Below, piece after piece: positions 24,227 to 42,660 of a DNA stretch of 47,772 bases. Within the stretch, counting starts at the first letter, position 1, and each line of letters starts with the position of its first letter. The stretch spans positions 1-47,772 of the forward strand of contig JBFMHS010000409.1 of assembly GCA_040751765.1 (NCBI GenBank), in the 5' to 3' direction. The position numbers and the translations under genes were made by a program. This stretch comes from Pseudomonadota bacterium (GTDB lineage Bacteria > Pseudomonadota > Alphaproteobacteria > Rhodospirillales > Magnetospirillaceae). The notes under the pieces are model-generated. The model ran no database searches. It was given only the letters and a program-made list of their open reading frames with translations, and was not told the origin of the DNA.

Positions 24227-24384
24227 CCGTTCCCCTTGCGCGCAGGCGGCGCCCGGTTTAGCAGCTTGGGTGCCCGGCGGCAATCGGATTGGGGCGGCTA
24301 TCCCGTTTCGCCGGTGTCTGCCCCTTGTCTTTCCCTCCAATGGGGGGCACTCTCCGCCGGGTGCACGGGGAGACAGGAGATCGG

Positions 24385-26847
24385 ATGCGAGGGTCCTTGG
24401 CCGCGCTGACGGCGTTCGCCACCGCGACCGCGCCCGCCGCGCTGGCGCGGGGGCTGGAGGGGTCCGACCTGGCCGGTTTCGACCCGGTGTCCATGGCGGT
24501 CGGCGCCGCCGTGATCCTGCCCATCGCGCTGCCATTGGTGGCGTTGCAGCGCTGGCGCATCGCCCGGCTGGAACGCCGCGCCGCCGACAAGGACGCCGAC
24601 GCCCGCCGCCTGCACGAATGCCTGTCGGCGGCCCCCGACGGCTACTACGCCTTCACCGCCGGCCCCGACCCGCGCGAGACATGCTCACGGCGGCTGGCGG
24701 TGCTGCTGGGCCTGCCCAAGGGCATCGATTCCGGTTGGCCCGAGGTGTTGGAGGCCTTCGCCCCCGCCGACGCCCGCACCCTGGACGACCGCCTGGCGGC
24801 GCTGCGGGGCGACGGCGACGCCTTCGAAATCGAACTGCCGCTGCCCGAGGGCGGGCGGCGGGTGCGGGCCACCGGCATGCGGGTGGCCGGGGCCGACGGC
24901 GAGCACATGGCTGACCTGGTGTGGATGGCTGACGTCACCGACGGCGCCGCCGTGGTCGAGGACCTGGCCCGCTCGCTGCAGGCGCTGGCCTCGGACACTG
25001 CCTATATCAAGGTGCTGCTGGACGCCCTGCCCATGCCGGTGTGGCTGCGTGACGACGACCTGTCGCTGGTGGCCGTCAACCAGGCCTATGCCCGCGCCGT
25101 CGACGCCGAGGGGGCCGAGGCGGTGGTCGCCGCCGGCATCGAGCTGGCCGCTGACGCCAGCGTCCGCGAGGCCCGCGCCCTTGCCGCGCGCGCGCGCGCC
25201 GCCGGCGAGCCGCGATCGGAGAGCTTCCATCTGGTGCTGGGCGGCGAGCGCCGCCTGGCCAGCATCACCGAGGTGCCGGTGTCGGTGGGCGACAACCTGC
25301 TTACCGCCGGTTTCGCCCTCGACCAGACCCGCGAGGAAGAGCTGCGGGCGCAGTTGGACCAGCACGTCACCGCCCATGTGGAGGTGCTGGAGCGCCTGGC
25401 CACCGCCATCGCCATCTTCTCCACCGACACCCGGCTGGCCTTCTTCAACACCGCCTTCGCGCGGCTGTGGCGGCTGGAGCGCGACTGGCTGGCGACCCAG
25501 CCCACCTATGGCGCGGTGATGGACTCCTTGCGCGACCGCCGCCTGCTGCCCGAGGTGGCCGACTACCGCGCCTACAAGGAGGAGGAGCTCAAGCGGTTCA
25601 TCTCGCTGATCGACCCCGTCGAGGCGCTGATGCACCTGCCCGACGGCCGCACCTTGCGCCGGCTAACCTCGCCGCATCCTTATGGCGGGCTGATCTTCAC
25701 CTACGAGGACGTCACCGACACCCTGGCCATGGAGCGGTCGTTCAACACCGCCATGGCGGTGCAGCGCGAGACCCTGGACCACCTGCACGAGGGCATCGCG
25801 GTGTTCGGCGGCGACGGCCGGTTGAAGCTGTCCAATCCGTCCTTCGCCGCCATCTGGGGGCTGTCCGCCGACGACCTGGCCGGCGGGCCGCACCTGATGG
25901 AGATCGTCGAGCGCCTGAAGCCGTTCTTCGAGGGCCGGCCCGACCGCGCCTCGGCCTGGAGCCCCGCCCGCGAGCGCCTGATGGCCCTGGCCAACCAGCG
26001 CAGCCCGGCCGAGGAGCGGCTTGAGCGCCAGGACGACACCATCGTCGACTGCACCAGCGTGCCGCTGCCCGACGGCGCCATCCTGCTGACCTTCCTCGAC
26101 GTCACCGATTCGGCCCGCGTCGAGCGGGCGCTGATCGAGCGCAACGAGGCCCTGGCCGCCGCCGACCTGCTGAAGAGCGAATTCATCGCCAACGTCTCGG
26201 CCGAGGTCCGCAAGCCGCTGACCACCATCATCGGCTTTGCCGAGATGCTGTCGGCCGAATACGCCGGCAAGCTCAACAAGCGCCAGCATGAATACGCCCG
26301 CGCCATCACCGAGGCGGGCCAGACCCTGGCCGGGCTGGTCTCCGACATCCTCGACCTCGCCGCCATCGAGGCCGGCCAGATGACGCTGGAACTGGACACC
26401 GTCGACGTCCATCCCCTGCTGGGCGGGGTGCTGTCGCTGGTCCGCGAGCGGGTGCGCGAGAAGAAGATCGCGCTGGCCTTCGACTGCCCGCTGGACATCG
26501 GCTGGATCGTCGCCGACGAACGCCGCCTCAAGCAGGTGCTGTTCAACCTGGTCGGCAACGCGGTGAAGTACACCCCGGTGGGGGGCGCCGTCACCATCCG
26601 CGCCGAGCGGCAGGGCGGCGAGCTGGCGCTGACCGTGGGCGATTCCGGGCCCGGCATCGCCCAGGCCGACCAGGCCCGCGTCTTCGACAGCTTCGTGTCC
26701 ATCAGCCACGAGGACGGCAGCCAGGGCGCCGGCCTCGGCCTGGCGCTGGTCAAGCGCTTCGTGGAACTGCACGGCGGCCGCGTCGAGCTCCGCAGCTCGG
26801 CGGCGGAAGGCACCTGGGTGACGGTCAGGCTGCCGACAGGGGGGTGA
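24385..26847 (+). CDS. divL: DivL-like membrane-anchored multi-PAS pseudo-histidine kinase (DHp with Ala at the phospho-acceptor position, plus a HATPase_c domain)
   Basis: Within ORF 24289..26847. ATG at 24385 preceded by AGGAG. H-box 'SEFIANVSAEVRKPLTTIIGFAEML' (Ala codon gcc at 26200-26202). N, G1, F and G2 boxes are present ('NLVGNAVKYT', 'DSGPGI', 'GAGLGLALV'). Confidence 0.8.
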   Translation: MRGSLAALTAFATATAPAALARGLEGSDLAGFDPVSMAVGAAVILPIALPLVALQRWRIARLERRAADKDADARRLHECLSAAPDGYYAFTAGPDPRETCSRRLAVLLGLPKGIDSGWPEVLEAFAPADARTLDDRLAALRGDGDAFEIELPLPEGGRRVRATGMRVAGADGEHMADLVWMADVTDGAAVVEDLARSLQALASDTAYIKVLLDALPMPVWLRDDDLSLVAVNQAYARAVDAEGAEAVVAAGIELAADASVREARALAARARAAGEPRSESFHLVLGGERRLASITEVPVSVGDNLLTAGFALDQTREEELRAQLDQHVTAHVEVLERLATAIAIFSTDTRLAFFNTAFARLWRLERDWLATQPTYGAVMDSLRDRRLLPEVADYRAYKEEELKRFISLIDPVEALMHLPDGRTLRRLTSPHPYGGLIFTYEDVTDTLAMERSFNTAMAVQRETLDHLHEGIAVFGGDGRLKLSNPSFAAIWGLSADDLAGGPHLMEIVERLKPFFEGRPDRASAWSPARERLMALANQRSPAEERLERQDDTIVDCTSVPLPDGAILLTFLDVTDSARVERALIERNEALAAADLLKSEFIANVSAEVRKPLTTIIGFAEMLSAEYAGKLNKRQHEYARAITEAGQTLAGLVSDILDLAAIEAGQMTLELDTVDVHPLLGGVLSLVRERVREKKIALAFDCPLDIGWIVADERRLKQVLFNLVGNAVKYTPVGGAVTIRAERQGGELALTVGDSGPGIAQADQARVFDSFVSISHEDGSQGAGLGLALVKRFVELHGGRVELRSSAAEGTWVTVRLPTGG

Positions 26848-26898: not shown

Positions 26899-27627
26899 TC
26901 AATGCGCCGCCACGCCGTGGCCGGTGTCGGCCGCCCGCGACGGGCTGGCGCCGTCGGGGTCGCGCAGCACGTAGCCGCGGCCCCACACCGTCTCGATGTA
27001 GTTGTCGCCGCCGGTGGCCGTGGCCAGCTTCTTGCGGAGCTTGCAGATGAAGACGTCGATGATCTTCAGCTCTGGTTCGTCGATGCCGCCGTAGAGGTGG
27101 TTGAGGAATTGCTCCTTGGTCAGCGTCTGGCCCTTGCGCAGGCTCAAGAGTTCCAGGATTCCGTATTCCTTGGCGGTCAGGTGCAGCGGCTCGCCCTCCA
27201 CCTCGACGGTGCGGGTGTCCAGGTTCACCGACAGCTTGCCGGTGCGGATGATGGATTGCGCGTGGCCCTTGGAGCGGCGCACGATGGCCTGGATGCGGGC
27301 CACCAGCTCGCCGCGGTCGAAGGGCTTGGTCAGGTAGTCGTCGGCGCCGAAGCCCAGGCCCTTGATCTTCTTGTCGGGCTCGGTCAGGCCCGACAGGATC
27401 AGGACCGGGGTCTCCACCCGTGACGAGCGCAGGCGGCGCAGCACCTCGTAGCCGTCCATGTCGGGCAGCATGAGGTCGAGGAGGATGATGTCGTAGTCGT
27501 AGAGCTTGCCGATCTCGAGGCCATCCTCGCCCAGAGCCGTCGTGTCGACGACCATGCCTTCGGCCTTGAGCATCGTCTCGATGACCTGGGCCATCATCCG
27601 GTCGTCTTCAACCACCAGCACGCGCAT
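26899..27627 (-). CDS. ctrA: Cell-cycle/motility response regulator CtrA
   Basis: Within ORF 26899..27708. 'MRVLVVEDD...[25 protein letters not shown]...[10 protein letters not shown]...[52 protein letters not shown]...[13 protein letters not shown]' matches the CtrA signature along its length. Confidence 0.92.
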
Positions 27628-27664
27628 CTGAGTTATCCCGATTTCGCCGTGTATTGAGATTGAG

Positions 27665-27672
27665 TTAACCAT
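27665..27672 (+). promoter_or_regulatory. CtrA half-site TTAACCAT in the ctrA/fliI divergent intergenic region
   Basis: Exact octamer, 38 nt upstream of the ctrA ATG. It is immediately preceded by the tandem ATTGAG-ATTGAG (27653-27664). Confidence 0.45.
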
Positions 27673-27706
27673 AAGGGGGTATTTTGGCGACTTCAAGGCG
27701 CCCGGC

Positions 27707-29152
27707 ATGACAATCCCCCCACGACAAGGGGTTAGCGGTCATCCGGACGGCCCGGAAGCATACCTCCGAAGCGCGGAAAATGGAGCCCGAAGGTTGAAAT
27801 TCCTGGTCAAGAACGTCCTCGGCGACATCGACCGGCTGTCGGGCATCCGGGTTTATGGGCGGGTGGCCGCCGTCCAGGGCATGCTGATCGAGGCGGGCGG
27901 CGTCCAGCGCCAGATCTCGGTGGGCGACCGTTGCGAGGTGATTGCCCGCGACGGCCGCCGCGTGCCTTGCGAGGTGGTGGGATTCCGCTCGGGCCGCGCG
28001 TTGCTGATGCCGTTCGTCGCCATCGACGGCGTCGGGTTGGGCTGCCGCACCGAGGTGGGCGATTCCGAGCCGGTGATCTATCCCGACAGCGGTTGGCTGG
28101 GCCGGGTGGTCAACGCCTTCGGCCAGCCGGTGGACGGACTGGGGCCGTTGCCCATGGGCGATGCCGCCGTGCCCATCCGCAACCGGCCGCCCTCGGCCCA
28201 TTCGCGCTCGCGCGTGCGTGGCAAGGTCGACCTCGGGGTGCGTTCGGTCAACGCCTTCCTGACCATGTGCCGGGGGCAGCGCATGGGCATTTTCGCCGGG
28301 TCCGGCGTCGGCAAGTCGTCGATCCTGTCGATGATGGCCCGCAACACCTCGTGCGACGTCTCGGTGATCGGGCTGATCGGCGAGCGCGGCCGCGAGGCGC
28401 GCGAGTTCATCGAGGACGACCTCGGCGAGGAGGGCATGAAGCGGTCGGTCGTGGTGGTGTCGACCTCGGACGAAAGCCCGCTGATGCGCCGCCAGGCGGC
28501 CTACATGACGTTGTCGGTGGCCGAGCACTTCCGCGACCAGGGCCTCGACGTGCTGTGCATGATGGACTCGGTGACCCGCTTCGCCATGGCCCAGCGCGAG
28601 ATCAGCCTGTCGGCGGGCGAGCCGCCGGCCTCCAAGGGCTACACCCCCACGGTGTTCGCCGAGCTGCCCCGCCTGCTGGAGCGGGCCGGCCCGGGCATCG
28701 AGGGGCAGGGGGGCTCGATCACCGGCATCTTCACTGTGCTGGTGGACGCCGACGACCACAACGAGCCCATCGCCGACGCGGTGCGAGGCATCCTCGACGG
28801 CCATATCGTGCTCGATCGCGGCATCGCCGACCGCGGCCGCTATCCGGCGGTCAACATCCTGCGCAGCGTGTCGCGCGTCATGCCCGCCTGCAACAACGAC
28901 CAGGAGAACGCCCTGGTCAGCCGCGCCCGGCGCCTGCTCGCCACCTACGAGGACATGGCCGAACTGATCCGCCTCGGCGCCTACCGGCGCGGCACCGACC
29001 CGGCGGTCGACGAGGCCATGCACTACTATCCGATGATCGAGGCCTTCCTGACCCAGCGCAAGGACGAGGCCACCGACCTCGGCACCTGCTATGCCGAACT
29101 GGCCCGCATCCTCGGCATGGAGTTCGAGGGCGACGGCATGGGGAGCCGCTAG
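27707..29152 (+). CDS. fliI: Flagellum-specific ATPase FliI
   Basis: 481-aa ORF with Walker A 'GSGVGKSS' and '[14 protein letters not shown]'. An in-frame TTG at 27794 with an upstream GGAG is an alternative, shorter start. Confidence 0.9.
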
Positions 29153-29155
29153 TCC

Positions 29156-29593
29156 ATGGCCAAGGCCAAGGGCCTGAAGACGCTGATCCGGCTGTCCAAG
29201 TTCAACGTGGACGAGAAGCGCCGCGTGCTGGTGGCGCTGCAGAACGCCGAGGACCAGGTGCTGGCCGAGATCGACAGCCACGACCACCGCCTCAAGGAGG
29301 AGCAGCGCGTCGCCGCCCAGGACTCCACCGGCGTCGGCTATCTCTACGGCGCCTACCACCGCGCCTGGATGGACCGCCGCGAGAACCTGCTGCGCTCGCT
29401 GGCCGCCCTGCGCGCGCAGATCGAGGCCGCCCGCGACGCCCTGGCCGAGGCCTATCGCGAGCAGAAGACCTACGAGATCACCCAGAAGGAACGCGAACGC
29501 CGCGAACAGGAAGAGCGCGACCGCAAGGAACAGGCCTTCCTCGACGAACTGGGCCAGCAGATGCACCAGCGGAAGAAGGATGAGGCGGGGTGA
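29156..29593 (+). CDS. fliJ: Flagellar export chaperone FliJ
   Basis: 145 aa, coiled-coil, 'LKTLIRLSKFNVDEKRRVL...', immediately after fliI. Confidence 0.75.
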   Translation: MAKAKGLKTLIRLSKFNVDEKRRVLVALQNAEDQVLAEIDSHDHRLKEEQRVAAQDSTGVGYLYGAYHRAWMDRRENLLRSLAALRAQIEAARDALAEAYREQKTYEITQKERERREQEERDRKEQAFLDELGQQMHQRKKDEAG

Positions 29594-29651: not shown

Positions 29652-29879
29652 ATGGATCTGGCGCGGGTGACGGCCAAGGGCCAGACGACGATTCCCAAGG
29701 CGGTGCGCGAGCGTGCCGGCATCAAGGAAGGCGACCTGCTGGAGTTCGTGGTCGAGGGCGATCATGTGGTGGTCCGCAAGATTCGCCGCAGTCAGGACGA
29801 CGATTACCTGAGGGGCGTCGAGGCGACCTTGGGCGAGTGGCTGTCCGACGAGGATGAGGCGGCCTATCGTGACCTTTGA
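29652..29879 (+). CDS. AbrB/MazE/SpoVT-family antitoxin
   Basis: Within ORF 29580..29879. 'MDLARVTAKGQTTIPKAVRERAGIKEGDLLEFVVEGDHVVVRK' is the swapped-hairpin signature. An RBS-like GGAAAGGAAGG lies upstream. Confidence 0.8.
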   Translation: MDLARVTAKGQTTIPKAVRERAGIKEGDLLEFVVEGDHVVVRKIRRSQDDDYLRGVEATLGEWLSDEDEAAYRDL

Positions 29880-30207
29880 GCGCTTCGACCTGGTGGTGGT
29901 GCCCTTCCCCTTCTCGGAGCGCGAGGGCGCCAAGCGGCGGCCGGCGCTGGTGGTGTCGTCGACGGATTTCAACCTCACCCACGACCATGTGGTGCTGGCC
30001 ATGGTCACCACCGGGGCCAGGACGCGCTGGCCGTCGGACGTGGCGATTTCTCCTGGCGCCGCCACCGGGCTGGCGGTGCCGTCGGTGGTCCGGCTCAAGT
30101 TGTTCACTCTCGATCGCGCGTTGATCCTGCGGACCATCGGCAAGGTGTCGGGCGCCGATGCCGTGAAACTCGACCAGGCCCTGCGCCGCAATCTCCTGAA
30201 CGAATGA
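29854..30207 (+). CDS. PemK/MazF-family toxin (endoribonuclease-like)
   Basis: 117 aa, 'FDLVVVPFPFSEREGAKRRPALVVS...VLAMVTT...VRLKLFTLDRALILRTIGKVS'. Overlaps the antitoxin 3' end. A GTG at 29869 is an alternative start. Confidence 0.8.
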   Translation: MRRPIVTFERFDLVVVPFPFSEREGAKRRPALVVSSTDFNLTHDHVVLAMVTTGARTRWPSDVAISPGAATGLAVPSVVRLKLFTLDRALILRTIGKVSGADAVKLDQALRRNLLNE

Positions 30208-31103
30208 CCCTCACCGCCTATCTTGCCCCCGAGGGCTTCGAGGACGACCTGCGCGCCGAACTGGGCGACGTGGCCGAGCAGCACGGCAGGCTGATGCTGG
30301 CGCCGGGGCCGGCGCGGGCGGTGGCGTGGGCGCAGAATGTGTGGTTCGACCCGGTGCGCATCCCCATCGCCTCCATCGGCGAGGGCGCCAGGGCGCTCAA
30401 GGCCGTCCAGCGCAACTGGTGGCCCTATGCCCCCACCCTGCACCGGCGCACCGCGCTGATGGTGGACAAGCTGCCCAAGGTCTCGGCCCGGCCTTTGGTG
30501 TTCGGCCAGCCGGCGCCGACGGCGCCCTTGGGATCGTTCACCCTGCTCGACGAGCACACCCTGCTGGCCTCGGCGCGGTGCTCCAGCCCGTTCCCCAACG
30601 GCGAAGTCCGCTTCGTCGAGGACAAGGCGGGGCCGCCCAACCGCGCCTATCTCAAGCTTTGGGAGGCCTTCACCGTCCTGGGTGTCCACCCCGCCCCCGG
30701 CGAGACCTGCCTCGACCTGGGTGCCTGCCCCGGCGGCTGGACCTGGGTGCTGGCCGGGCTGGGGGCGCGGGTGACGGCGGTGGACAAGGCGCCGCTGGAT
30801 CCGCGGGTGGCGGCGATGCCCGGGGTCACCGTGCTCGCCGGCAGCGCCTTCGGCCTCGATCCCCGCCAGGCTGGGCCGGTCGACTGGCTGTTCTCGGACG
30901 TCATCTGCTATCCGTCGCGCCTGCTGGCCCTGGTGCGCCGCTGGATCGAGGCCGGCGCGGCGCGCAATTTCGTCTGTACCGTCAAGTTCCAGGGCGAAAC
31001 CGATTTCGAATCCTTGCGCGCCTTCGGCGAAATACCGGGCGCGCGTCTGCTGCACCTGTTCCACAACAAGCACGAAGTCACCTGGGCGCTGCTCCGGCCC
31101 TAA
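30204..31103 (+). CDS. RlmM/FtsJ-like SAM-dependent ribose 2'-O-methyltransferase (23S rRNA C2498-type)
   Basis: 299 aa, 'NRAYLKLWEAF...CLDLGACPGGWTWVL...SDVICYPSRL...VKF'. ATGA overlap with the toxin stop. Confidence 0.72.
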   Translation: MTLTAYLAPEGFEDDLRAELGDVAEQHGRLMLAPGPARAVAWAQNVWFDPVRIPIASIGEGARALKAVQRNWWPYAPTLHRRTALMVDKLPKVSARPLVFGQPAPTAPLGSFTLLDEHTLLASARCSSPFPNGEVRFVEDKAGPPNRAYLKLWEAFTVLGVHPAPGETCLDLGACPGGWTWVLAGLGARVTAVDKAPLDPRVAAMPGVTVLAGSAFGLDPRQAGPVDWLFSDVICYPSRLLALVRRWIEAGAARNFVCTVKFQGETDFESLRAFGEIPGARLLHLFHNKHEVTWALLRP

Positions 31104-31181: not shown

Positions 31182-32282
31182 ATGGGCGTTCCTACCCTTC
31201 CGCCGCCGGTGGATATCGACAACGACACCAAGAAGGCGGTCATCGACGGCCTGAAGAAGGTGCTCGCCCGCCTGCAGGAGCAGGGGCTGGTCGATGCGGG
31301 CGCCACCTACCAGAACCTGATCTCCCAGCCCGAACTGCTGGAAAGCTTCATCAAGACCTTCACCGCCCACCGCGACTCCTGCGACGACATCGTGAAGGAC
31401 GCCAAGGGCGGGCCCATCCGCGACAACGACACCCCCACCGCCTGCGGCGTGTCGCTGGACCAGATCCAGCAGCTGCTGGTGCGCACTTGCGCCAAGAAGG
31501 TGATGGAGTCCGAGAAGACCATCTCCACCGTCACCGAGACCGTCACTAAGAAGAGCTTCCTCGGCTTGATCAAGAAGACCGAGGAAGTCAGCCGCGAGAC
31601 CACCGACCCGGTGGAGGAGCGCAAGATCCGCGAGATCACCCGCTACGTCGCCTTCGGCTGGCAGTTGCCCTTGCTCAACGCCTATCGCCAGCTGACCTAC
31701 CAGCAGCTGATGGAGATCGGCGAGGACCTGGTGGCGCTGCCCACCGCCGCCCATGTGGAGGCGCTGTCCCAGTTCGATCCCGGCATGCTGCGCAAGGTCA
31801 AGCAGGCGGCCGGCGAGGACTTCGCCGAGATCCTGGCCGACCGGCCGCAGGCCATCGCCGGCGTCGCGGTGTGGAACCGCGACATGTACGAATTCTACCG
31901 CAAGGCCCTGGGCGACAAGGCCTGGGCGTTCTTCGCCCGCGACTCAGCCTTCTTCAACGTGGTGGCGTCGCTGGACAAGCCCACTGCCCGCATCCTGGGT
32001 GACGTGCTGTGCTACGTCGCCGCCGAGAACCTGGCCGAGATCCAGCGCCTGAACATCGACAAGATCGAGGTGCTGGTGACCTCGCTGCGCGCCGCCTTCG
32101 GCGACCGCCTGGGCCAGATCCTGGCGATCCCCAATTTTTCCAAGGACATCCTGCGCAAGGTGGTCGACAACCTGATCCACATGAGCCAGGAGAAGGACAA
32201 GCTGATGACGTCCTTCGCGCTGACCTGCAAGGCCATGGTGCCCACCGTCATGGAATGGCTGGCCAAGCAGCGCGTCGCCTGA
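31182..32282 (+). CDS. Hypothetical soluble protein, 366 aa, no recognisable domain
   Basis: Long ORF with neighbour-like GC3-rich codon usage. The protein is Lys/Glu/Ile-rich, unlike the Arg/Gly/Pro-rich artefact ORFs. Confidence 0.7.
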   Translation: MGVPTLPPPVDIDNDTKKAVIDGLKKVLARLQEQGLVDAGATYQNLISQPELLESFIKTFTAHRDSCDDIVKDAKGGPIRDNDTPTACGVSLDQIQQLLVRTCAKKVMESEKTISTVTETVTKKSFLGLIKKTEEVSRETTDPVEERKIREITRYVAFGWQLPLLNAYRQLTYQQLMEIGEDLVALPTAAHVEALSQFDPGMLRKVKQAAGEDFAEILADRPQAIAGVAVWNRDMYEFYRKALGDKAWAFFARDSAFFNVVASLDKPTARILGDVLCYVAAENLAEIQRLNIDKIEVLVTSLRAAFGDRLGQILAIPNFSKDILRKVVDNLIHMSQEKDKLMTSFALTCKAMVPTVMEWLAKQRVA

Positions 32283-32449: not shown

Positions 32450-35400
32450 ATGCTGCATCTTCGCCCCATGATCGTCGGCTCCGCGTCCAAACGACTCCTG
32501 GTCATCGAGGACAATCCGGGCGACCAGCGCCTCATCGAGATCAAGCTCGCCGAGGCCATGGTCTCCTGGGCGGCCGACTGCCGCGCCAGCCTTGCCGACG
32601 CGCTGGTGCGGCCGCTGGACGGCTACGAATGCATCCTGGCCGACTTGGGGCTTCCCGATTCCTCGGGCATCGAGACGGTGTTGCGGATCAAGCGGGCCGC
32701 CCCCGACATCGCCCTGGTGGTGCTGACCGGCCTCGACGACGAGCGCGTCGCCCAGGACGCCATCCGCGCCGGCGCCCAGGACTACGTGGTCAAGTCCCTG
32801 GCCGGGCTGGAATTGCTGCCCCGTGTCATCCGCCATGCGGTCGAGCGCCAGCAGACCCAGCTGGCCCTGGAGGCGTCGCGCCGCACCAACGAGGCGCTGC
32901 TGGACGCCAGCCACGACCTCGCCGCGCTGCTGGAGGCCGACGGCCGCCTGATCACCATCAACGCCAAGGGCGAGCAGTATTTCGGCAAGACCGCCGAGGA
33001 CCTGGCCGGGGCCAACCTGTTCGACCTGCTGCCCAAGTCGCTGGCCGCCCATCGTCGGGCCTATTTCGATCAGGCTCTGGCCAGCGGCCGAACCGTCGAG
33101 TTCGAGGATTCCGACGGTCCACACTGGTACGCCAACCGCGTCCTCGCCGTCGCCGGCACCATGCCGGGCGAACGCCATTGCGCCTGGTTCTGCCGCGACA
33201 TCACTTCCGAGCGTGCCGCCGCCGACAAGCTGGAGGAGGCCAAGGACGCCGCCGACCTGGCCAACCGCGCCAAGACCGACTTCATGTCGCGCATGAGCCG
33301 CGACATCCGCACGCCGCTCAACGACGTCATCGGCTTCGCCGAGATGATCGCCGCCGAGATGCTGGGCCCGGTGCAGCCGGCCGGCTACCGCGAATACGCC
33401 GACAGCATCCTCAATTCGGGCTCGCAGATCCTCAAGCTGATCGACCGCATCACCGACGTGTCGATGCTGGAATCGGCCCTGCTCAAGGACCAGGCCTCGT
33501 ATCGCGATCTCGTCGAGCTGTCGCCGGACCTGATCTGCGTCTGCGTCGACGGCGTCATCGAGCGCATCAACGCCGCCGGCCTGGGCATGCTGCGGGCGCC
33601 GGCCGCCTCGGCCTGCGAGGGCAAGGCCTTCGCCGACTTCATCCACGCCGATTACCGCGCCATCTTCGACATGGGCCTGGAGGCCCTGTACGAGGAGGAC
33701 CACCCGGTCCCGGTCAAGGTGGTCACCTTCGCCGGCCGCACCCGCGACGTCGAACTGTCGGCGGTGCCGCTCAGGCGCGACGGCCATGTCGCCACCCTGC
33801 TGGTCGGCCGCGACACCACCGAGGTCACCGCCGCCATGCGCGCGGTGGCGGCGCGCGAACACCGCATCCGCGCCATCATGGACACGGTGTTGGACGCCAT
33901 CGTCACCATCGACGAGGACGGCGTCATTGTCAGCGCCAACCTGTCGGTGGAGCGCATCTTCGGCTATTCGCTGACCGAGTTGGTGGGCGCCAACGTCGCC
34001 ATCCTGATGCCCGAGCCCGACGCCTCGCAGCACGGCGGCTACATCAAGAAGTTCATGGCCGGCCACGGCGGCACGGTCATCGGCGTCGGCCGCGAGGTCA
34101 TGGGCCGCCGCAAGGACGGCACCCTGATTCCGGTGCATCTGTCGGTGTCCGAGCTGCGGCTGGACAAACGGCGCCTGTTCACCGGCACCATCCGCGACCT
34201 GACCGAGAACAAGCAGCTGGCGCAGCGGGTCAACTACCTCGCCAACCACGACCCGCTGACCGATTTGCCCAACCGCTCGTTGCTGACCGACCGGCTGGGG
34301 CAGGCGGTGGCGCTGGCTCGCGGCGCCGGCGGCCATGTGGCGGTGATGACCATCGACCTGGACGGTTTCACCACCATCAACGATTCGCTGGGCCATGACG
34401 TCGGCAACCAGCTGCTGCGCGAGACGGCGCGCCGGCTGACCCAGGCGGTGGGCGGAGGTGGCACCGCCGCGCGGCTGGCCGGCGACGAGTTCGCGGTGGT
34501 GATCCCCCAGCTCAAGGATCTGGCCCAGGTGACGGCGGCGGTGGAGCAGGTGCAGGACGCCCTGACCAAGCCGTTCCACATCCACAACGCCGACCTCAAC
34601 CTGCCGGCCGATATCGGCGTCTCGGTCTATCCCCGTGACGGCGAGGAGCCGTTGGACCTGCTGCGCAACGCCGAGATGGCGCTGCACACGGTCAAGAAGC
34701 GCCCCGACCAGCGGTTGGGCTTCTTCGACACCGCCATGTCCTACGCGGTGTCCGAGCGCCTGACGCTGGAACGCTCGATCAAGGATGCCCTGACGCTGGG
34801 CCAGTTCGAGCTGTTCTTCCAGCCCCAGGTGCAGCTGGCCGACTATCGCCTGATCGGCGCCGAGGCGCTGATCCGCTGGCGCCATCCCGAGCTGGGCATC
34901 ATTGCACCCGACAAGTTCATCCCGGTGGCCGAGGAAACCGGTCTGATCGTGCCCATGGGCCGCTGGGTGCTCCAGGAGGCGTGCCGCCAGGTCAAGGAAT
35001 GGTCGCGCCTCGGCCTGCCGGCCATCCGCCTGGGCGTCAACATCTCGGGCCGCCAGTTCCGTGAGCCGGACCTCGCCGACACCGTCGCCCAGGCCATCGC
35101 CGACGCCGGCATCGACGCCCGCGCGCTGGACCTGGAGCTGACCGAAAGCATGCTGATGGTCGACGGCGAGGGCACCCTGAAGCTGCTGCGCGAGTTGGCG
35201 CGGCTGGGGGTGTCGCTGTCCATCGACGATTTCGGCACCGGCTATTCCTCGCTGGCCTATCTCAAGCGGTTCCCGGTCAACACGGTCAAGATCGACCGCG
35301 CTTTCGTGCGCGACCTCGAGCACGACGAGGACGGCCGCGTCATCGCCAACGCCATCATCTCGCTGGCCCACTCGCTGTCCCTGAAGACCATCGCCGAGGG

Positions 35401-35587
35401 TGTCGAGACCGAGAACCAGGCTGCGCTCCTGGCCAAGCACGGCTGCGACGAGATCCAGGGCTACCTGATCGGCCGGCCGCTGCCGTCGGCCGACTTCATC
35501 GCATTCGCCAGGAAGTGGGAGGCAGCGCCCGGCCCGGCCTTGGACGCCGGCGCGGGGACCGGGCAACAGCAGGGGGTTAGGCCATGA
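32450..35587 (+). CDS. Multidomain signalling protein: REC, PAS, degenerate HisKA/DHp (His replaced by Arg, no ATPase domain), PAS, PAS, GGDEF (AGDEF) and EAL
   Basis: 1045 aa. REC 'LLVIEDN...ILADLGLPD...VVKS'. DHp-like 'ANRAKTDFMSRMSRDIRTPLNDVIGFAEMI' (Arg codon at 33299-33301). 'LAGDEF' at 34478-34492. EAL 'GAEALIRW' at 34862-34870, 'DDFGTGYSSL', 'KIDRAFV'. Confidence 0.9.
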   Translation: MLHLRPMIVGSASKRLLVIEDNPGDQRLIEIKLAEAMVSWAADCRASLADALVRPLDGYECILADLGLPDSSGIETVLRIKRAAPDIALVVLTGLDDERVAQDAIRAGAQDYVVKSLAGLELLPRVIRHAVERQQTQLALEASRRTNEALLDASHDLAALLEADGRLITINAKGEQYFGKTAEDLAGANLFDLLPKSLAAHRRAYFDQALASGRTVEFEDSDGPHWYANRVLAVAGTMPGERHCAWFCRDITSERAAADKLEEAKDAADLANRAKTDFMSRMSRDIRTPLNDVIGFAEMIAAEMLGPVQPAGYREYADSILNSGSQILKLIDRITDVSMLESALLKDQASYRDLVELSPDLICVCVDGVIERINAAGLGMLRAPAASACEGKAFADFIHADYRAIFDMGLEALYEEDHPVPVKVVTFAGRTRDVELSAVPLRRDGHVATLLVGRDTTEVTAAMRAVAAREHRIRAIMDTVLDAIVTIDEDGVIVSANLSVERIFGYSLTELVGANVAILMPEPDASQHGGYIKKFMAGHGGTVIGVGREVMGRRKDGTLIPVHLSVSELRLDKRRLFTGTIRDLTENKQLAQRVNYLANHDPLTDLPNRSLLTDRLGQAVALARGAGGHVAVMTIDLDGFTTINDSLGHDVGNQLLRETARRLTQAVGGGGTAARLAGDEFAVVIPQLKDLAQVTAAVEQVQDALTKPFHIHNADLNLPADIGVSVYPRDGEEPLDLLRNAEMALHTVKKRPDQRLGFFDTAMSYAVSERLTLERSIKDALTLGQFELFFQPQVQLADYRLIGAEALIRWRHPELGIIAPDKFIPVAEETGLIVPMGRWVLQEACRQVKEWSRLGLPAIRLGVNISGRQFREPDLADTVAQAIADAGIDARALDLELTESMLMVDGEGTLKLLRELARLGVSLSIDDFGTGYSSLAYLKRFPVNTVKIDRAFVRDLEHDEDGRVIANAIISLAHSLSLKTIAEGVETENQAALLAKHGCDEIQGYLIGRPLPSADFIAFARKWEAAPGPALDAGAGTGQQQGVRP

Positions 35588-35952
35588 CCGGGACCGTCGT
35601 CATCGTCGAGGACAACGCGATGAACATGAAGCTCCTGGAGCAGGCGCTGTCCATCGCCGGATACCAGACCGTCAAGTCGGCGGACGGCGAGGGGCTGGTC
35701 GAGCTGACCGCCGGCGCCGACGCGGCGGTGGTGCTGATGGACATCCAGCTGCCCAAGTATTCCGGCGTCGACCTGCTGCGCCTGCTGAAGGCCGATCCCC
35801 GCACCGCCGACACCCCGGTGCTGGCGGTGACCGCCTTCGCCGATCCCGATTCGGTGGCGGGGTTCCTGGAGGAAGGCTTCAACCAGGTCATCACCAAGCC
35901 CATCTCCATTCGTAAGCTGCTGGACGAGGTCGCCCGGTACTGCGGCGGCTGA
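35584..35952 (+). CDS. divK: DivK-like single-domain response regulator
   Basis: 122 aa, '[18 protein letters not shown]...[12 protein letters not shown]...VLAVTAFA...ITKPISI'. ATGA overlap with the upstream GGDEF-EAL gene. Confidence 0.75.
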
Positions 35953-41564: not shown

Positions 41565-41676
41565 GCCGCCCGCCCCCCGCCGCTTCGTTTTGCTTGGCAC
41601 GGCCGGCGCGGAAGGATAGATAGGCAAAAGGGGAGCGGTGGGACGCGTTTAGCGCGCAAAGGGGACACCTGAAAGC

Positions 41677-42660
41677 ATGATTGTCGACATCGACCTGGCT
41701 CCGCTGACGGTGCTGATCATCGATGACAGCCGCTATGCACGCTCGTTCCTGAAGTCGGCGCTGCATTCCTTCGGCATCCGCCAGATCCTCGAGGCCGGTT
41801 CGGGCCCCGACGGCATCCACATGCTGGCCGAGCACAAGGTCGACCTGGTCCTGGTCGACTACGACATGGACCCCATGAACGGCATCGACTTCACCCGGTT
41901 CCTGCGCTCGGGCGAACTGCCCGGCTGCCGCGAGCTGCCGGTGATCATGATCTCCGGCATGGCCGAGATGGAAAAGGTCGTCGAGGCCCGCAACGGCGGC
42001 GTCAGCGAATTCCTGGCCAAGCCGGTGTCGGCGGAATCGCTGTTCCGCCGCATCCGCAACGCCCTGGTCAATCCGCGCCCCTTCGTCGACTGCGAGAGCT
42101 ATGTGGGGCCGTGCCGGCGCACCGTCGACCGCGGGCCGCCGGACCAGACCGAGCGCCGGGTTGCGCCGCCTCTGCCCAGGCCCAAGCCGCTGGTCGCGAT
42201 TGCCCAGGGCAGCGCCCGGCCCACCGTCAACCGCGCGGTGGCGCAGGCCGCGGCGGCCAAGGCCAAGGCGGCCGGGTCGGAACGGACCAGCCGCAAGCGC
42301 TTCAAGGCCGGCACCCGCATCTTCGACGAGGGCGCCGAGGGCCACGAGGCGTATGTGGTGGAGACCGGCCGGGTGACCATCTTCAAGGAAACCGCCGCCG
42401 GCAAGGTGGTCCTCGGCCATCTCGGTCCGCAGGGCATCTTCGGCGAGATGGCCTTGATCGACGGCGAGCCGCGCATGGCCTCGGCCGAGGCGGCGGAGGA
42501 CACGGTGTGCCTGGTCATCCCCAAGGCGGCGCTGGCCGCCCAGATCGGCCGCACCCCCGATCTGGTCATCCTGGTGCTCGAAACCCTGTTGCAGGACATC
42601 CGCAAAATGGGCCACGAGCTGGTCGAGGTGCGCGGGCGCCTCAATCCGCCGAGGCGCTGA
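41677..42660 (+). CDS. Response-regulator receiver fused to a cyclic-nucleotide-binding (CAP effector) domain, with no DNA-binding output
   Basis: 327 aa. REC 'LIIDDS...LVLVDYDMDPMNG...EFLAKP', a Pro/Ala-rich linker, then cNMP cassette 'FGEMALIDGEPRMASAEA'. Confidence 0.85.
   Translation: MIVDIDLAPLTVLIIDDSRYARSFLKSALHSFGIRQILEAGSGPDGIHMLAEHKVDLVLVDYDMDPMNGIDFTRFLRSGELPGCRELPVIMISGMAEMEKVVEARNGGVSEFLAKPVSAESLFRRIRNALVNPRPFVDCESYVGPCRRTVDRGPPDQTERRVAPPLPRPKPLVAIAQGSARPTVNRAVAQAAAAKAKAAGSERTSRKRFKAGTRIFDEGAEGHEAYVVETGRVTIFKETAAGKVVLGHLGPQGIFGEMALIDGEPRMASAEAAEDTVCLVIPKAALAAQIGRTPDLVILVLETLLQDIRKMGHELVEVRGRLNPPRR

Follow-up and report, generated by a model that had tools for sequence, protein, structure and literature searches.

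A histidine-less DHp domain in a probable c-di-GMP phosphodiesterase encoded by a gene overlapping divK in Magnetospirillaceae

The overlapping gene pair and its output domains

Two overlapping genes were analyzed in a 47,772-nt stretch of DNA, hereafter the window, from a bacterium of the family Magnetospirillaceae (Alphaproteobacteria; Rhodospirillales; GenBank assembly GCA_040751765.1, contig JBFMHS010000409.1, positions 1 to 47,772 of the forward strand). The first gene, here called the main gene, encodes a 1045-residue protein that, judging from its domains, is probably a multi-input phosphodiesterase of cyclic di-GMP (c-di-GMP). Within it lies a dimerization and histidine phosphotransfer (DHp) domain like that of histidine kinases, lacking both the phosphorylatable His and the ATPase domain. 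The second gene encodes a 122-residue single receiver. An earlier note on this DNA, made from the letters alone, had read the main protein as REC, PAS, a His-less DHp, two further PAS domains, a GGDEF domain with the motif AGDEF and an EAL domain, and had called for the domain boundaries to be checked with hidden Markov models. Run with Pfam, that check confirmed the architecture and placed all seven domains. The features of the pair, all on the plus strand, are as follows.

32450..35587, +, main gene, 1045 aa, REC-PAS-DHp (His-less, no ATPase domain)-PAS-heme PAS-GGDEF (AGDEF)-EAL (open reading frame, Pfam)
32498..32818, +, N-terminal REC, aa 17-123 (Pfam)
32900..33214, +, PAS1, aa 151-255 (Pfam), the least conserved domain
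33269..33475, +, HisKA-type DHp, aa 274-342 (Pfam, alignments to solved kinases, AlphaFold2, Foldseek)
33299..33301, +, Arg284 codon CGC at the phospho-His position (alignments, orthologue codons)
33497..33829, +, PAS2, aa about 350-460 (Pfam), forming with the DHp a cassette conserved across a wider family
33863..34198, +, PAS3, aa 472-583, FixL-type heme PAS (Pfam, FixL alignment)
34241..34705, +, GGDEF domain, aa 598-752 (Pfam), with the AGDEF motif at 34478-34492
34772..35479, +, EAL domain, aa 775-1010 (Pfam), catalytic motifs intact and invariant
35584..35952, +, divK orthologue, 122-aa single receiver (Pfam; DivK is the best PDB match)

The real start of the main gene may be Met7 (32468) rather than position 32450, because many orthologues align only from Met7 onward. 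A promoter and terminator scan returned nothing above chance. Orthologues were collected by a scan of one genome per species. It yielded 43 loci with identities of 66-89%, belonging to Magnetospirillum, Paramagnetospirillum, Phaeospirillum and related metagenome-assembled genomes (MAGs), and the conservation of each domain was expressed as mean pairwise identity across 39 full-length orthologues. By this measure the DHp stands highest (0.82), followed by EAL (0.80), PAS2 (0.80), PAS3 (0.74), REC (0.72), GGDEF (0.68) and PAS1 (0.60). Residues E20, D21, D65, T93 and K115 of the N-terminal REC are invariant in the 39 orthologues, and the domain is therefore predicted to be phosphorylatable.

The third PAS domain resembles the heme domain of Bradyrhizobium japonicum FixL (E 7e-33, about 50% identical), and its proximal His528 (34031-34033) and distal Arg548 align with the heme His and Arg of FixL. 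Because this PAS is of the FixL heme type, the core of the protein is probably an O2-sensing phosphodiesterase. His528 and Arg548 are replaced or deleted at about ten of the 39 loci with full-length orthologues (L034-L037, L039, L009, L010, L017, L032 and L038), and the losses of the heme ligand include the Phaeospirillum / M. fulvum-molischianum clade. The earlier note had described the EAL motifs as intact and the GGDEF motif as AGDEF, and both descriptions proved correct. The EAL motifs EALxR, N, ELTE, DDFGTGYSS, KID, EGVE and QGY are all present and invariant in the 39 orthologues, and the domain is predicted from its sequence to be an active phosphodiesterase. The AGDEF motif (residues 677-681) occurs in 36 of the 39, the guanine-binding Asp (D344 of PleD) is replaced by Asn653 (34406-34408) in every one of them, and the GGDEF domain contains no RxxD I-site. 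With two substrate or catalytic positions altered (AGDEF, and Asn for Asp), the GGDEF domain is more likely regulatory than a cyclase. The domain may nevertheless have cyclase activity, since the AGDEF enzyme VCA0965 of Vibrio cholerae is active. In Hypr GGDEF enzymes the nucleotide specificity shifts with changes at the position of PleD D344, and here too the ligand might therefore be something other than GTP. On the most economical reading of these sequence features, the C-terminal half would be a DosP-like phosphodiesterase that responds to O2 and whose GGDEF domain is regulatory.

Another feature of the protein is a Cys-x-Cys pair in the first strand of PAS2 ('PDLICVCVDG', about 33527-33550), which is kept across the wider DHp-PAS2 family in variants that include LICVCVDG, LTCVCVDG, LICICTGD and CICVVYEG. 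The pair may serve in redox chemistry or hold a cofactor.

The main gene ends where the receiver gene begins. In ...CC ATG A at 35584-35587 the ATG of the receiver gene overlaps the upstream TGA, and a GGGGG Shine-Dalgarno-like run lies 7 nt 5' of this ATG. The earlier note had reported the ATGA overlap and had taken the product for a DivK-like single receiver. This assignment held, as the best solved relative is Caulobacter crescentus DivK (1M5T; E 8e-20, 39% identity over 115 residues), followed by PleD, Sln1 and CheY. The phosphorylation-site motifs ED, LMDIQLP, AVTAF and KP are present and the active site is intact; helix alpha1 (EDNxxNMKL), LMDIQLP, AVTAF and KPIS are the same as in Caulobacter DivK and invariant in 41 orthologues. 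The N-terminal REC of the main protein, by comparison, is only 21% identical to DivK. Orthologues of the 122-residue receiver are named DivK by JGI and in the annotation of M. gryphiswaldense MSR-1. Magnetospirillum has been described as possessing a PleC-DivK system without DivJ, with one best match to DivK in M. magneticum (Brilli et al., PMC2877005). On sequence grounds, the neighbour is the DivK orthologue of this lineage.

A DHp segment of the PleC/DivJ/PdhS type

The earlier note had allowed that the segment might be merely a PAS linker that does not fold as a DHp hairpin. Pfam, AlphaFold2 and Foldseek agree on a genuine DHp-type hairpin. The HisKA family (PF00512) matches at 46.3 bits against a gathering score of 26.9 and is covered over model positions 1-65 of 66. 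In the AlphaFold2 model (residues 1-470, 30-sequence alignment, mean pLDDT 74), a confidently predicted REC and PAS1 are followed by two long helices (252-304 and 313-346), and the second of these, alpha2, continues straight into PAS2. The best PDB matches of this model in Foldseek are PAS/LOV-histidine-kinase structures, over about 208 aligned columns. These results, the HisKA match being full-length, rule out a mere PAS linker, as do the alignments to solved DHp domains described next.

The motif FMSRMSRDIRTPL begins at residue 278, and the H-box FMSRMSRDIRTPLNDVIGF contains Arg284 (codon CGC). In phmmer alignments Arg284 is in register with the phospho-His of RetS, a GacS-like kinase, HK853, ERS1 and DivL, which bears out the claim that an Arg at 33299-33301 replaces the phospho-His. 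It had also been noted that no HATPase domain follows the helix; Pfam gave no HATPase_c match at E <= 0.1 on the 1045-residue protein, and PAS2 comes directly after the DHp. Since the phospho-His and the entire catalytic domain are absent, the protein cannot be a kinase.

In spite of these losses, the subtype of the DHp is recognizable. When PAS1 and the DHp were compared with NCBIfam, PdhS scored 82.5 bits and DivJ 70.4 against 53 for the next family; the PdhS and DivJ scores lie far below the equivalog cutoffs and therefore denote subtype similarity only, not orthology. The H-box pattern xx[ED][LI]RTPLNxxIGF is common to the main protein and to genuine PleC-like kinases of Magnetospirillum and other alphaproteobacteria (L044-L052), as are the length of the inter-helix loop and the motif E-x-[LF]-G-P-x5-Y-x-[ED]-Y ('GP..Y.EY'). 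Hybrid kinases with the same type of N-terminal REC (P0008, P0014 and P0022) have a loop four residues shorter and no 'GP..Y.EY'. A profile search with an alignment of the DHp-PAS2 cassettes described below found PleC and DivJ (JGI names) as the nearest named kinases; it returned mostly short fragments and yielded no census of architectures. Positions H+7, H+11 and H+12 reportedly determine receiver specificity in other HisKA kinases, according to work by Skerker and Laub. Here they are Asn, Gly and Phe, invariant in the orthologues and identical to those of PleC-type kinases. By sequence, then, the DHp is of the PleC/DivJ/PdhS type, to which the kinases of DivK itself belong. REC-PAS-kinases are the top non-orthologous matches of the protein, but inheritance of REC-PAS-DHp from them as a single block was rejected for the DHp, as their DHp subtype differs and their loop is four residues shorter. 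The protein is therefore a mosaic.

Of the 44 sequences in the family, 42 have Arg at position 284, with CGC, CGT, CGG and AGG as its codons, and the other two (L011 and L040) have His (CAC). L040 forms the basal branch of the clade in a tree that includes His-carrying outgroups. With a His-bearing sequence at the base and His-bearing outgroups beyond it, loss of the ATPase domain must have preceded loss of the His, and selection has since preserved the Arg. L040 has GGDEF instead of AGDEF and retains its His in an ATPase-less DHp; L011 is nested among Arg-bearing sequences and resembles a reversion. Around this position the string S-R-D-I-R-T-P-L-N-D-V-I-G-F is essentially invariant in the orthologues. 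The His-less DHp of DivL docks phosphorylated DivK (DivK~P), with R553 (H+3) as a docking residue (PMC4211667), and the equivalent of R553 in the main protein, R287, is conserved.

Conservation of the pair, related cassettes and the neighbourhood

Among the 43 orthologous loci, divK lies directly 3' of the main gene in all 40 that extend far enough, with a gap between -4 (ATGA) and +20 nt. The flanking genes vary among these 40 loci while the pair persists, and the same overlapping pair is present in M. gryphiswaldense MSR-1. Closely upstream in the window is a gene for a 366-residue protein without a Pfam or NCBIfam family; it lies directly or closely upstream of the main gene in about 27 of the 43 loci and likewise in MSR-1, in most cases preceded by a gene for an FtsJ-like methyltransferase.

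The DHp and PAS2 together (residues 262-470) were also searched exhaustively against 1.8 billion cluster representatives. Twenty-four clusters aligned in a single piece across the DHp-PAS2 junction at 32-72% identity, and the presumption that the architecture is confined to Magnetospirillaceae was overturned. HisKA followed directly by PAS, with no ATPase domain, was seen in 8 members scanned with Pfam and in 4 more by precomputed Pfam lists. Named members are Rhodospirillales, e.g., Varunaivibrio sulfuroxidans. The output is PAS-GGDEF-EAL in most members, and in P0249, P0263 and P0368 it is a genuine CckA-like HisKA-HATPase-REC kinase further downstream. In these three (P0249 being locus L089) a His-less PleC-type DHp, with Phe or Arg, and PAS-PAS precede the kinase in one polypeptide, a layout that recalls DivL and CckA joined in cis. 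The residue at the His site over the 24 clusters is His in 14, Arg in 4, Tyr in 4 and Phe in 2, and a neighbour-joining tree requires at least seven independent losses of His.

The genes around the pair include the following.

24262..26847, +, divL, PAS-HisKA-HATPase_c pseudokinase, given stop to stop (best solved match DivL 4Q20, E 2e-48)
26899..27738, -, ctrA, given stop to stop (NCBIfam CtrA equivalog, 414.7 bits against a curated cutoff of 350)
27632-29152, +, fliI, after ctrA
29153-29593, +, fliJ
29812-30207, +, PemK/MazF-type toxin gene, between fliJ and the methyltransferase gene
30204-31103, FtsJ-like methyltransferase gene
31182-32282, +, 366-residue protein
41653-42660, +, receiver fused to a cyclic-nucleotide-binding domain, further downstream of the pair

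The genes divL and ctrA lie 5-8 kb upstream of the main gene, with ctrA divergent from divL, and the pair thus sits in a CtrA-pathway and flagellar neighbourhood. The fliI-fliJ genes are upstream of the pair in M. gryphiswaldense MSR-1 (L081) too. The H-box of the window's divL, FIANVSAEVRKPLTTIIGF, has Ala at the phospho-His position, in agreement with DivL of M. magneticum, which has Ala at the same site (PMC4211667). That the main gene is itself the organism's divL was ruled out by the presence of the true one at 24262-26847; the DHp of the main protein matches DivL at only E 4e-5.

Possible roles of the DHp segment

The earlier note proposed that the DHp remnant recruits the co-translated DivK-like protein to gate c-di-GMP turnover. 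Much of what this proposal drew on has stood: the DHp is real, the neighbour is DivK and the two genes are coupled. It had missed the heme PAS, the PleC/DivJ/PdhS type of the DHp, the divL and ctrA genes in the window and the wider cassette family, and the cassette proves to predate the linkage to divK. Keeping this in mind, the reading that we tentatively prefer, and which may hold although we would give it less than an even chance, is that the DHp serves both as a dimeric transmission bundle and as a docking face for the co-translated DivK, tuning the EAL output. No longer able to autophosphorylate or to relay phosphate, the DHp would have been retained as a dimeric helical bundle that carries N-terminal signals to the output, and in addition as a docking site for DivK made from the same mRNA by coupled translation. 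DivK, most likely as DivK~P, would bind the H-box face and shift the DHp-PAS2 helices, and EAL activity would be tuned as a consequence. Putative contact residues are Arg284, Arg287, Thr288, Asn291 and Gly295-Phe296, with Arg284 perhaps taking the role of DivL Tyr550 at the acidic phosphorylation pocket of the receiver. Docking could equally shorten the lifetime of DivK~P. The result would be a link between the DivK/DivL/CtrA motility and cell-cycle circuit and both O2 status and c-di-GMP turnover, in an arrangement that might functionally mirror the divK-pleD operon, a hydrolase standing in for the cyclase.

Pseudo-histidine kinases are already known, with DivL as the mechanistic precedent (PMC5361649, PMC4211667). 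The main protein resembles DivL of Caulobacter crescentus (PDB 4Q20), the DivK~P receptor that controls CckA, in its HisKA DHp with a non-phosphorylatable His site, an otherwise intact H-box (xELRTPL) and a preceding PAS domain, as well as in its location beside DivK-pathway genes; the proposed logic, a receiver signalling into a dead kinase, would also be the same. Unlike DivL, it has no ATPase domain of any kind and Arg instead of Tyr or Ala at the His site, its DHp is PleC/DivJ/PdhS-like, and its output is in cis (GGDEF-EAL) rather than another kinase. PleC, DivJ and PdhS, whose cognate receiver is DivK, give the best profile matches for its PAS1 and DHp and have in common with it the H-box, the loop length, 'GP..Y.EY' and the specificity residues, but it lacks the phospho-His and the catalytic domain and has PAS domains and a c-di-GMP output after the DHp. 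The earlier note's loose analogy to divK-pleD is apt insofar as divK is co-transcribed with a receiver-containing c-di-GMP enzyme, tying the DivK phosphorelay to c-di-GMP. It fails in that the gene order is reversed and in the nature of the enzyme: PleD is a cyclase built as REC-REC-GGDEF, whereas the main protein is probably a phosphodiesterase that combines PAS and heme inputs with a pseudo-DHp. As in Escherichia coli DosP, whose O2-sensing heme PAS is similar, the heme-type PAS immediately precedes a GGDEF-EAL tandem in which the EAL domain looks active. AxPDEA1 of Komagataeibacter is, like DosP, a heme-PAS c-di-GMP phosphodiesterase. The main protein differs from both in that its heme PAS is FixL-like, not DosP-like, and in its 470 extra N-terminal residues (REC-PAS-DHp-PAS). 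RetS and other pseudo-histidine kinases likewise use the kinase scaffold for protein-protein signalling instead of phosphotransfer, but they keep an ATPase-like domain, and none was found in a c-di-GMP enzyme within the literature searched. About 1% of kinases have no His, and Arg is among the substitutions listed (PMC5361649). A literature search turned up no report of this gene or of an ATPase-less DHp inside a c-di-GMP enzyme, and the translational coupling to divK and a Rhodospirillales-wide cassette with repeated His loss were not found described there either.

Several other explanations compete with docking of DivK. The DHp could be a structural relic, only a dimerising four-helix bundle or coiled-coil spacer that transmits signals from REC/PAS1 to PAS2/PAS3/EAL, with divK co-transcribed because the two proteins belong to one regulon and DivK making no contact with the DHp. 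The DHp-PAS2 cassette does occur in many Rhodospirillales sensor proteins without a nearby receiver gene, helix alpha2 runs directly into PAS2, and His was lost so many times that the phosphochemistry must be dispensable. A spacer, however, should keep only its core heptads, whereas here the exposed H-box (R-T-P-L-N..G-F) is invariant and PleC-like; the replacements at the His site are solely Arg, Tyr and Phe, never small or acidic; and the coupling to divK, often by a 4-nt overlap, has outlasted rearrangement of both flanks. For these reasons we regard a relic as somewhat unlikely, while acknowledging that the restriction to bulky residues is only suggestive of selection, because a single transition in a His codon yields either Arg or Tyr. 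It seems less likely still that signals run the other way, with a PleC-like DHp left as a phosphatase-only remnant that, needing neither the His nor the ATPase domain, speeds the dephosphorylation of DivK~P (or of REC~P within the protein itself), so that O2 and PAS signals flow out to DivK. The PleC type of the DHp would suit such a role, as would the invariance of the acidic H+1 residue D285 and of T288 at H+4. The pattern E/DxxT/N (H+1 acidic, H+4 Thr) was reportedly defined as the HisKA phosphatase motif by Willett and Kirby in 2012, and Zhu et al. are said to have found in 2000 that the isolated DHp of EnvZ has phosphatase activity and that some EnvZ His243 mutants retain it. Against a phosphatase counts the fact that many HisKA kinases lose most of this activity without the His or a nucleotide-bound ATPase domain. 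DivL, moreover, has the same Thr and yet is described as a sensor, not as a participant in phosphotransfer (PMC5361649).

The partner of the DHp might also be found in cis, in which case it would dock the protein's own N-terminal receiver, phosphorylation of which would set the conformation of the DHp, and DivK would be unrelated to the DHp. That receiver has all of its catalytic residues, REC-(PAS)-DHp layouts recur in the wider family (P0247, P0272 and P0288), and the nearest true kinases by full N-terminal similarity begin with the same type of REC. We nevertheless judge this quite improbable, since the DHp of those kinases is of another subtype, its loop being shorter by four residues, since an N-terminal REC is missing from most of the wider family, and since helix alpha1 of this REC (NPGDQRLI) is unlike that of DivK or PleD, whereas the specificity positions of the DHp are PleC-like. 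Finally, and very improbably, the segment could be a decoy that pairs with the DHp of a PleC-type kinase of the same cell, in the manner of RetS and GacS, and so blocks or localises the kinase. The solved structures that match the DHp best include RetS, and the genomes also encode genuine PleC/PdhS-like kinases with a very similar DHp (L044, and L047, which shares its MAG with L001). That the DHp is fused to PAS2 and an enzymatic output throughout the family, however, points to a role within the molecule.

A number of observations weigh against DivK docking itself. The synteny survey that the earlier note had suggested found the pair in 40 of 40 Magnetospirillaceae loci and in MSR-1, but an adjacent stand-alone receiver gene in none of the seven distant cassette members examined (0/7), by which divK synteny as a general feature of the cassette was ruled out. 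On sequence evidence the ATPase-less DHp-PAS cassette is older than the linkage to divK, so that the conserved job of the DHp may be unrelated to the co-encoded DivK. The genes pleC, divJ and divL of Caulobacter are themselves unlinked to divK, however, and missing synteny is therefore compatible with DivK as a partner in trans. Synteny inside one bacterial family can persist by descent, and conservation of the H-box could in part reflect helix-bundle structure such as the Pro kink. His is still carried by 14 of the 24 cassette clusters. The alpha4 region of the receiver reads ADPDS where DivK has AMKGD, and this includes the Asp90 position highlighted at the DivL-DivK interface (Childers et al., PMC4211667). 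The organism's real DivL is encoded 6 kb away, so the main protein is not its DivL. The N-terminal REC is an alternative partner of the DHp, and the FixL-type heme PAS is the most obvious regulator of the EAL output. About 10 of the 39 orthologues, in turn, lack the heme-ligand His528; O2 sensing is thus not family-wide and has apparently been lost in some lineages.

A broader proposal, which we consider possible rather than probable, is that DHp-PAS2 is a portable input that senses phosphorylated receivers by reverse signalling, as DivL does, and that Rhodospirillales have mounted on varied outputs, namely heme-PAS c-di-GMP phosphodiesterases and CckA-like hybrid kinases. Its His would have become dispensable after loss of the ATPase domain, and in Magnetospirillaceae it would have become coupled to DivK, making O2, c-di-GMP and DivK-DivL-CtrA one node. 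By analogy, the fusions to CckA-like kinases recall the connection from DivL to CckA and favour reading the cassette as an input module.

DivL is the only well-studied case of a response regulator signalling backwards into a catalytically dead histidine kinase, and its discoverers asked whether other systems use such a reversal (PMC5361649). The locus characterized here offers a second, simpler candidate, in which a dead DHp is fused to its own readout, c-di-GMP hydrolysis. With that fused readout, the putative ligand DivK in the same operon and the same pair in M. gryphiswaldense MSR-1, a species amenable to genetics, a phosphodiesterase assay can test the idea directly. If DivK docking is true, magnetotactic bacteria would have oxygen sensing, c-di-GMP and the CtrA motility pathway joined through this protein, and a family of ATPase-less DHp input modules would be defined. 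If it is false, the family still shows a kinase dimerization domain recycled as a signal-transmitting scaffold.

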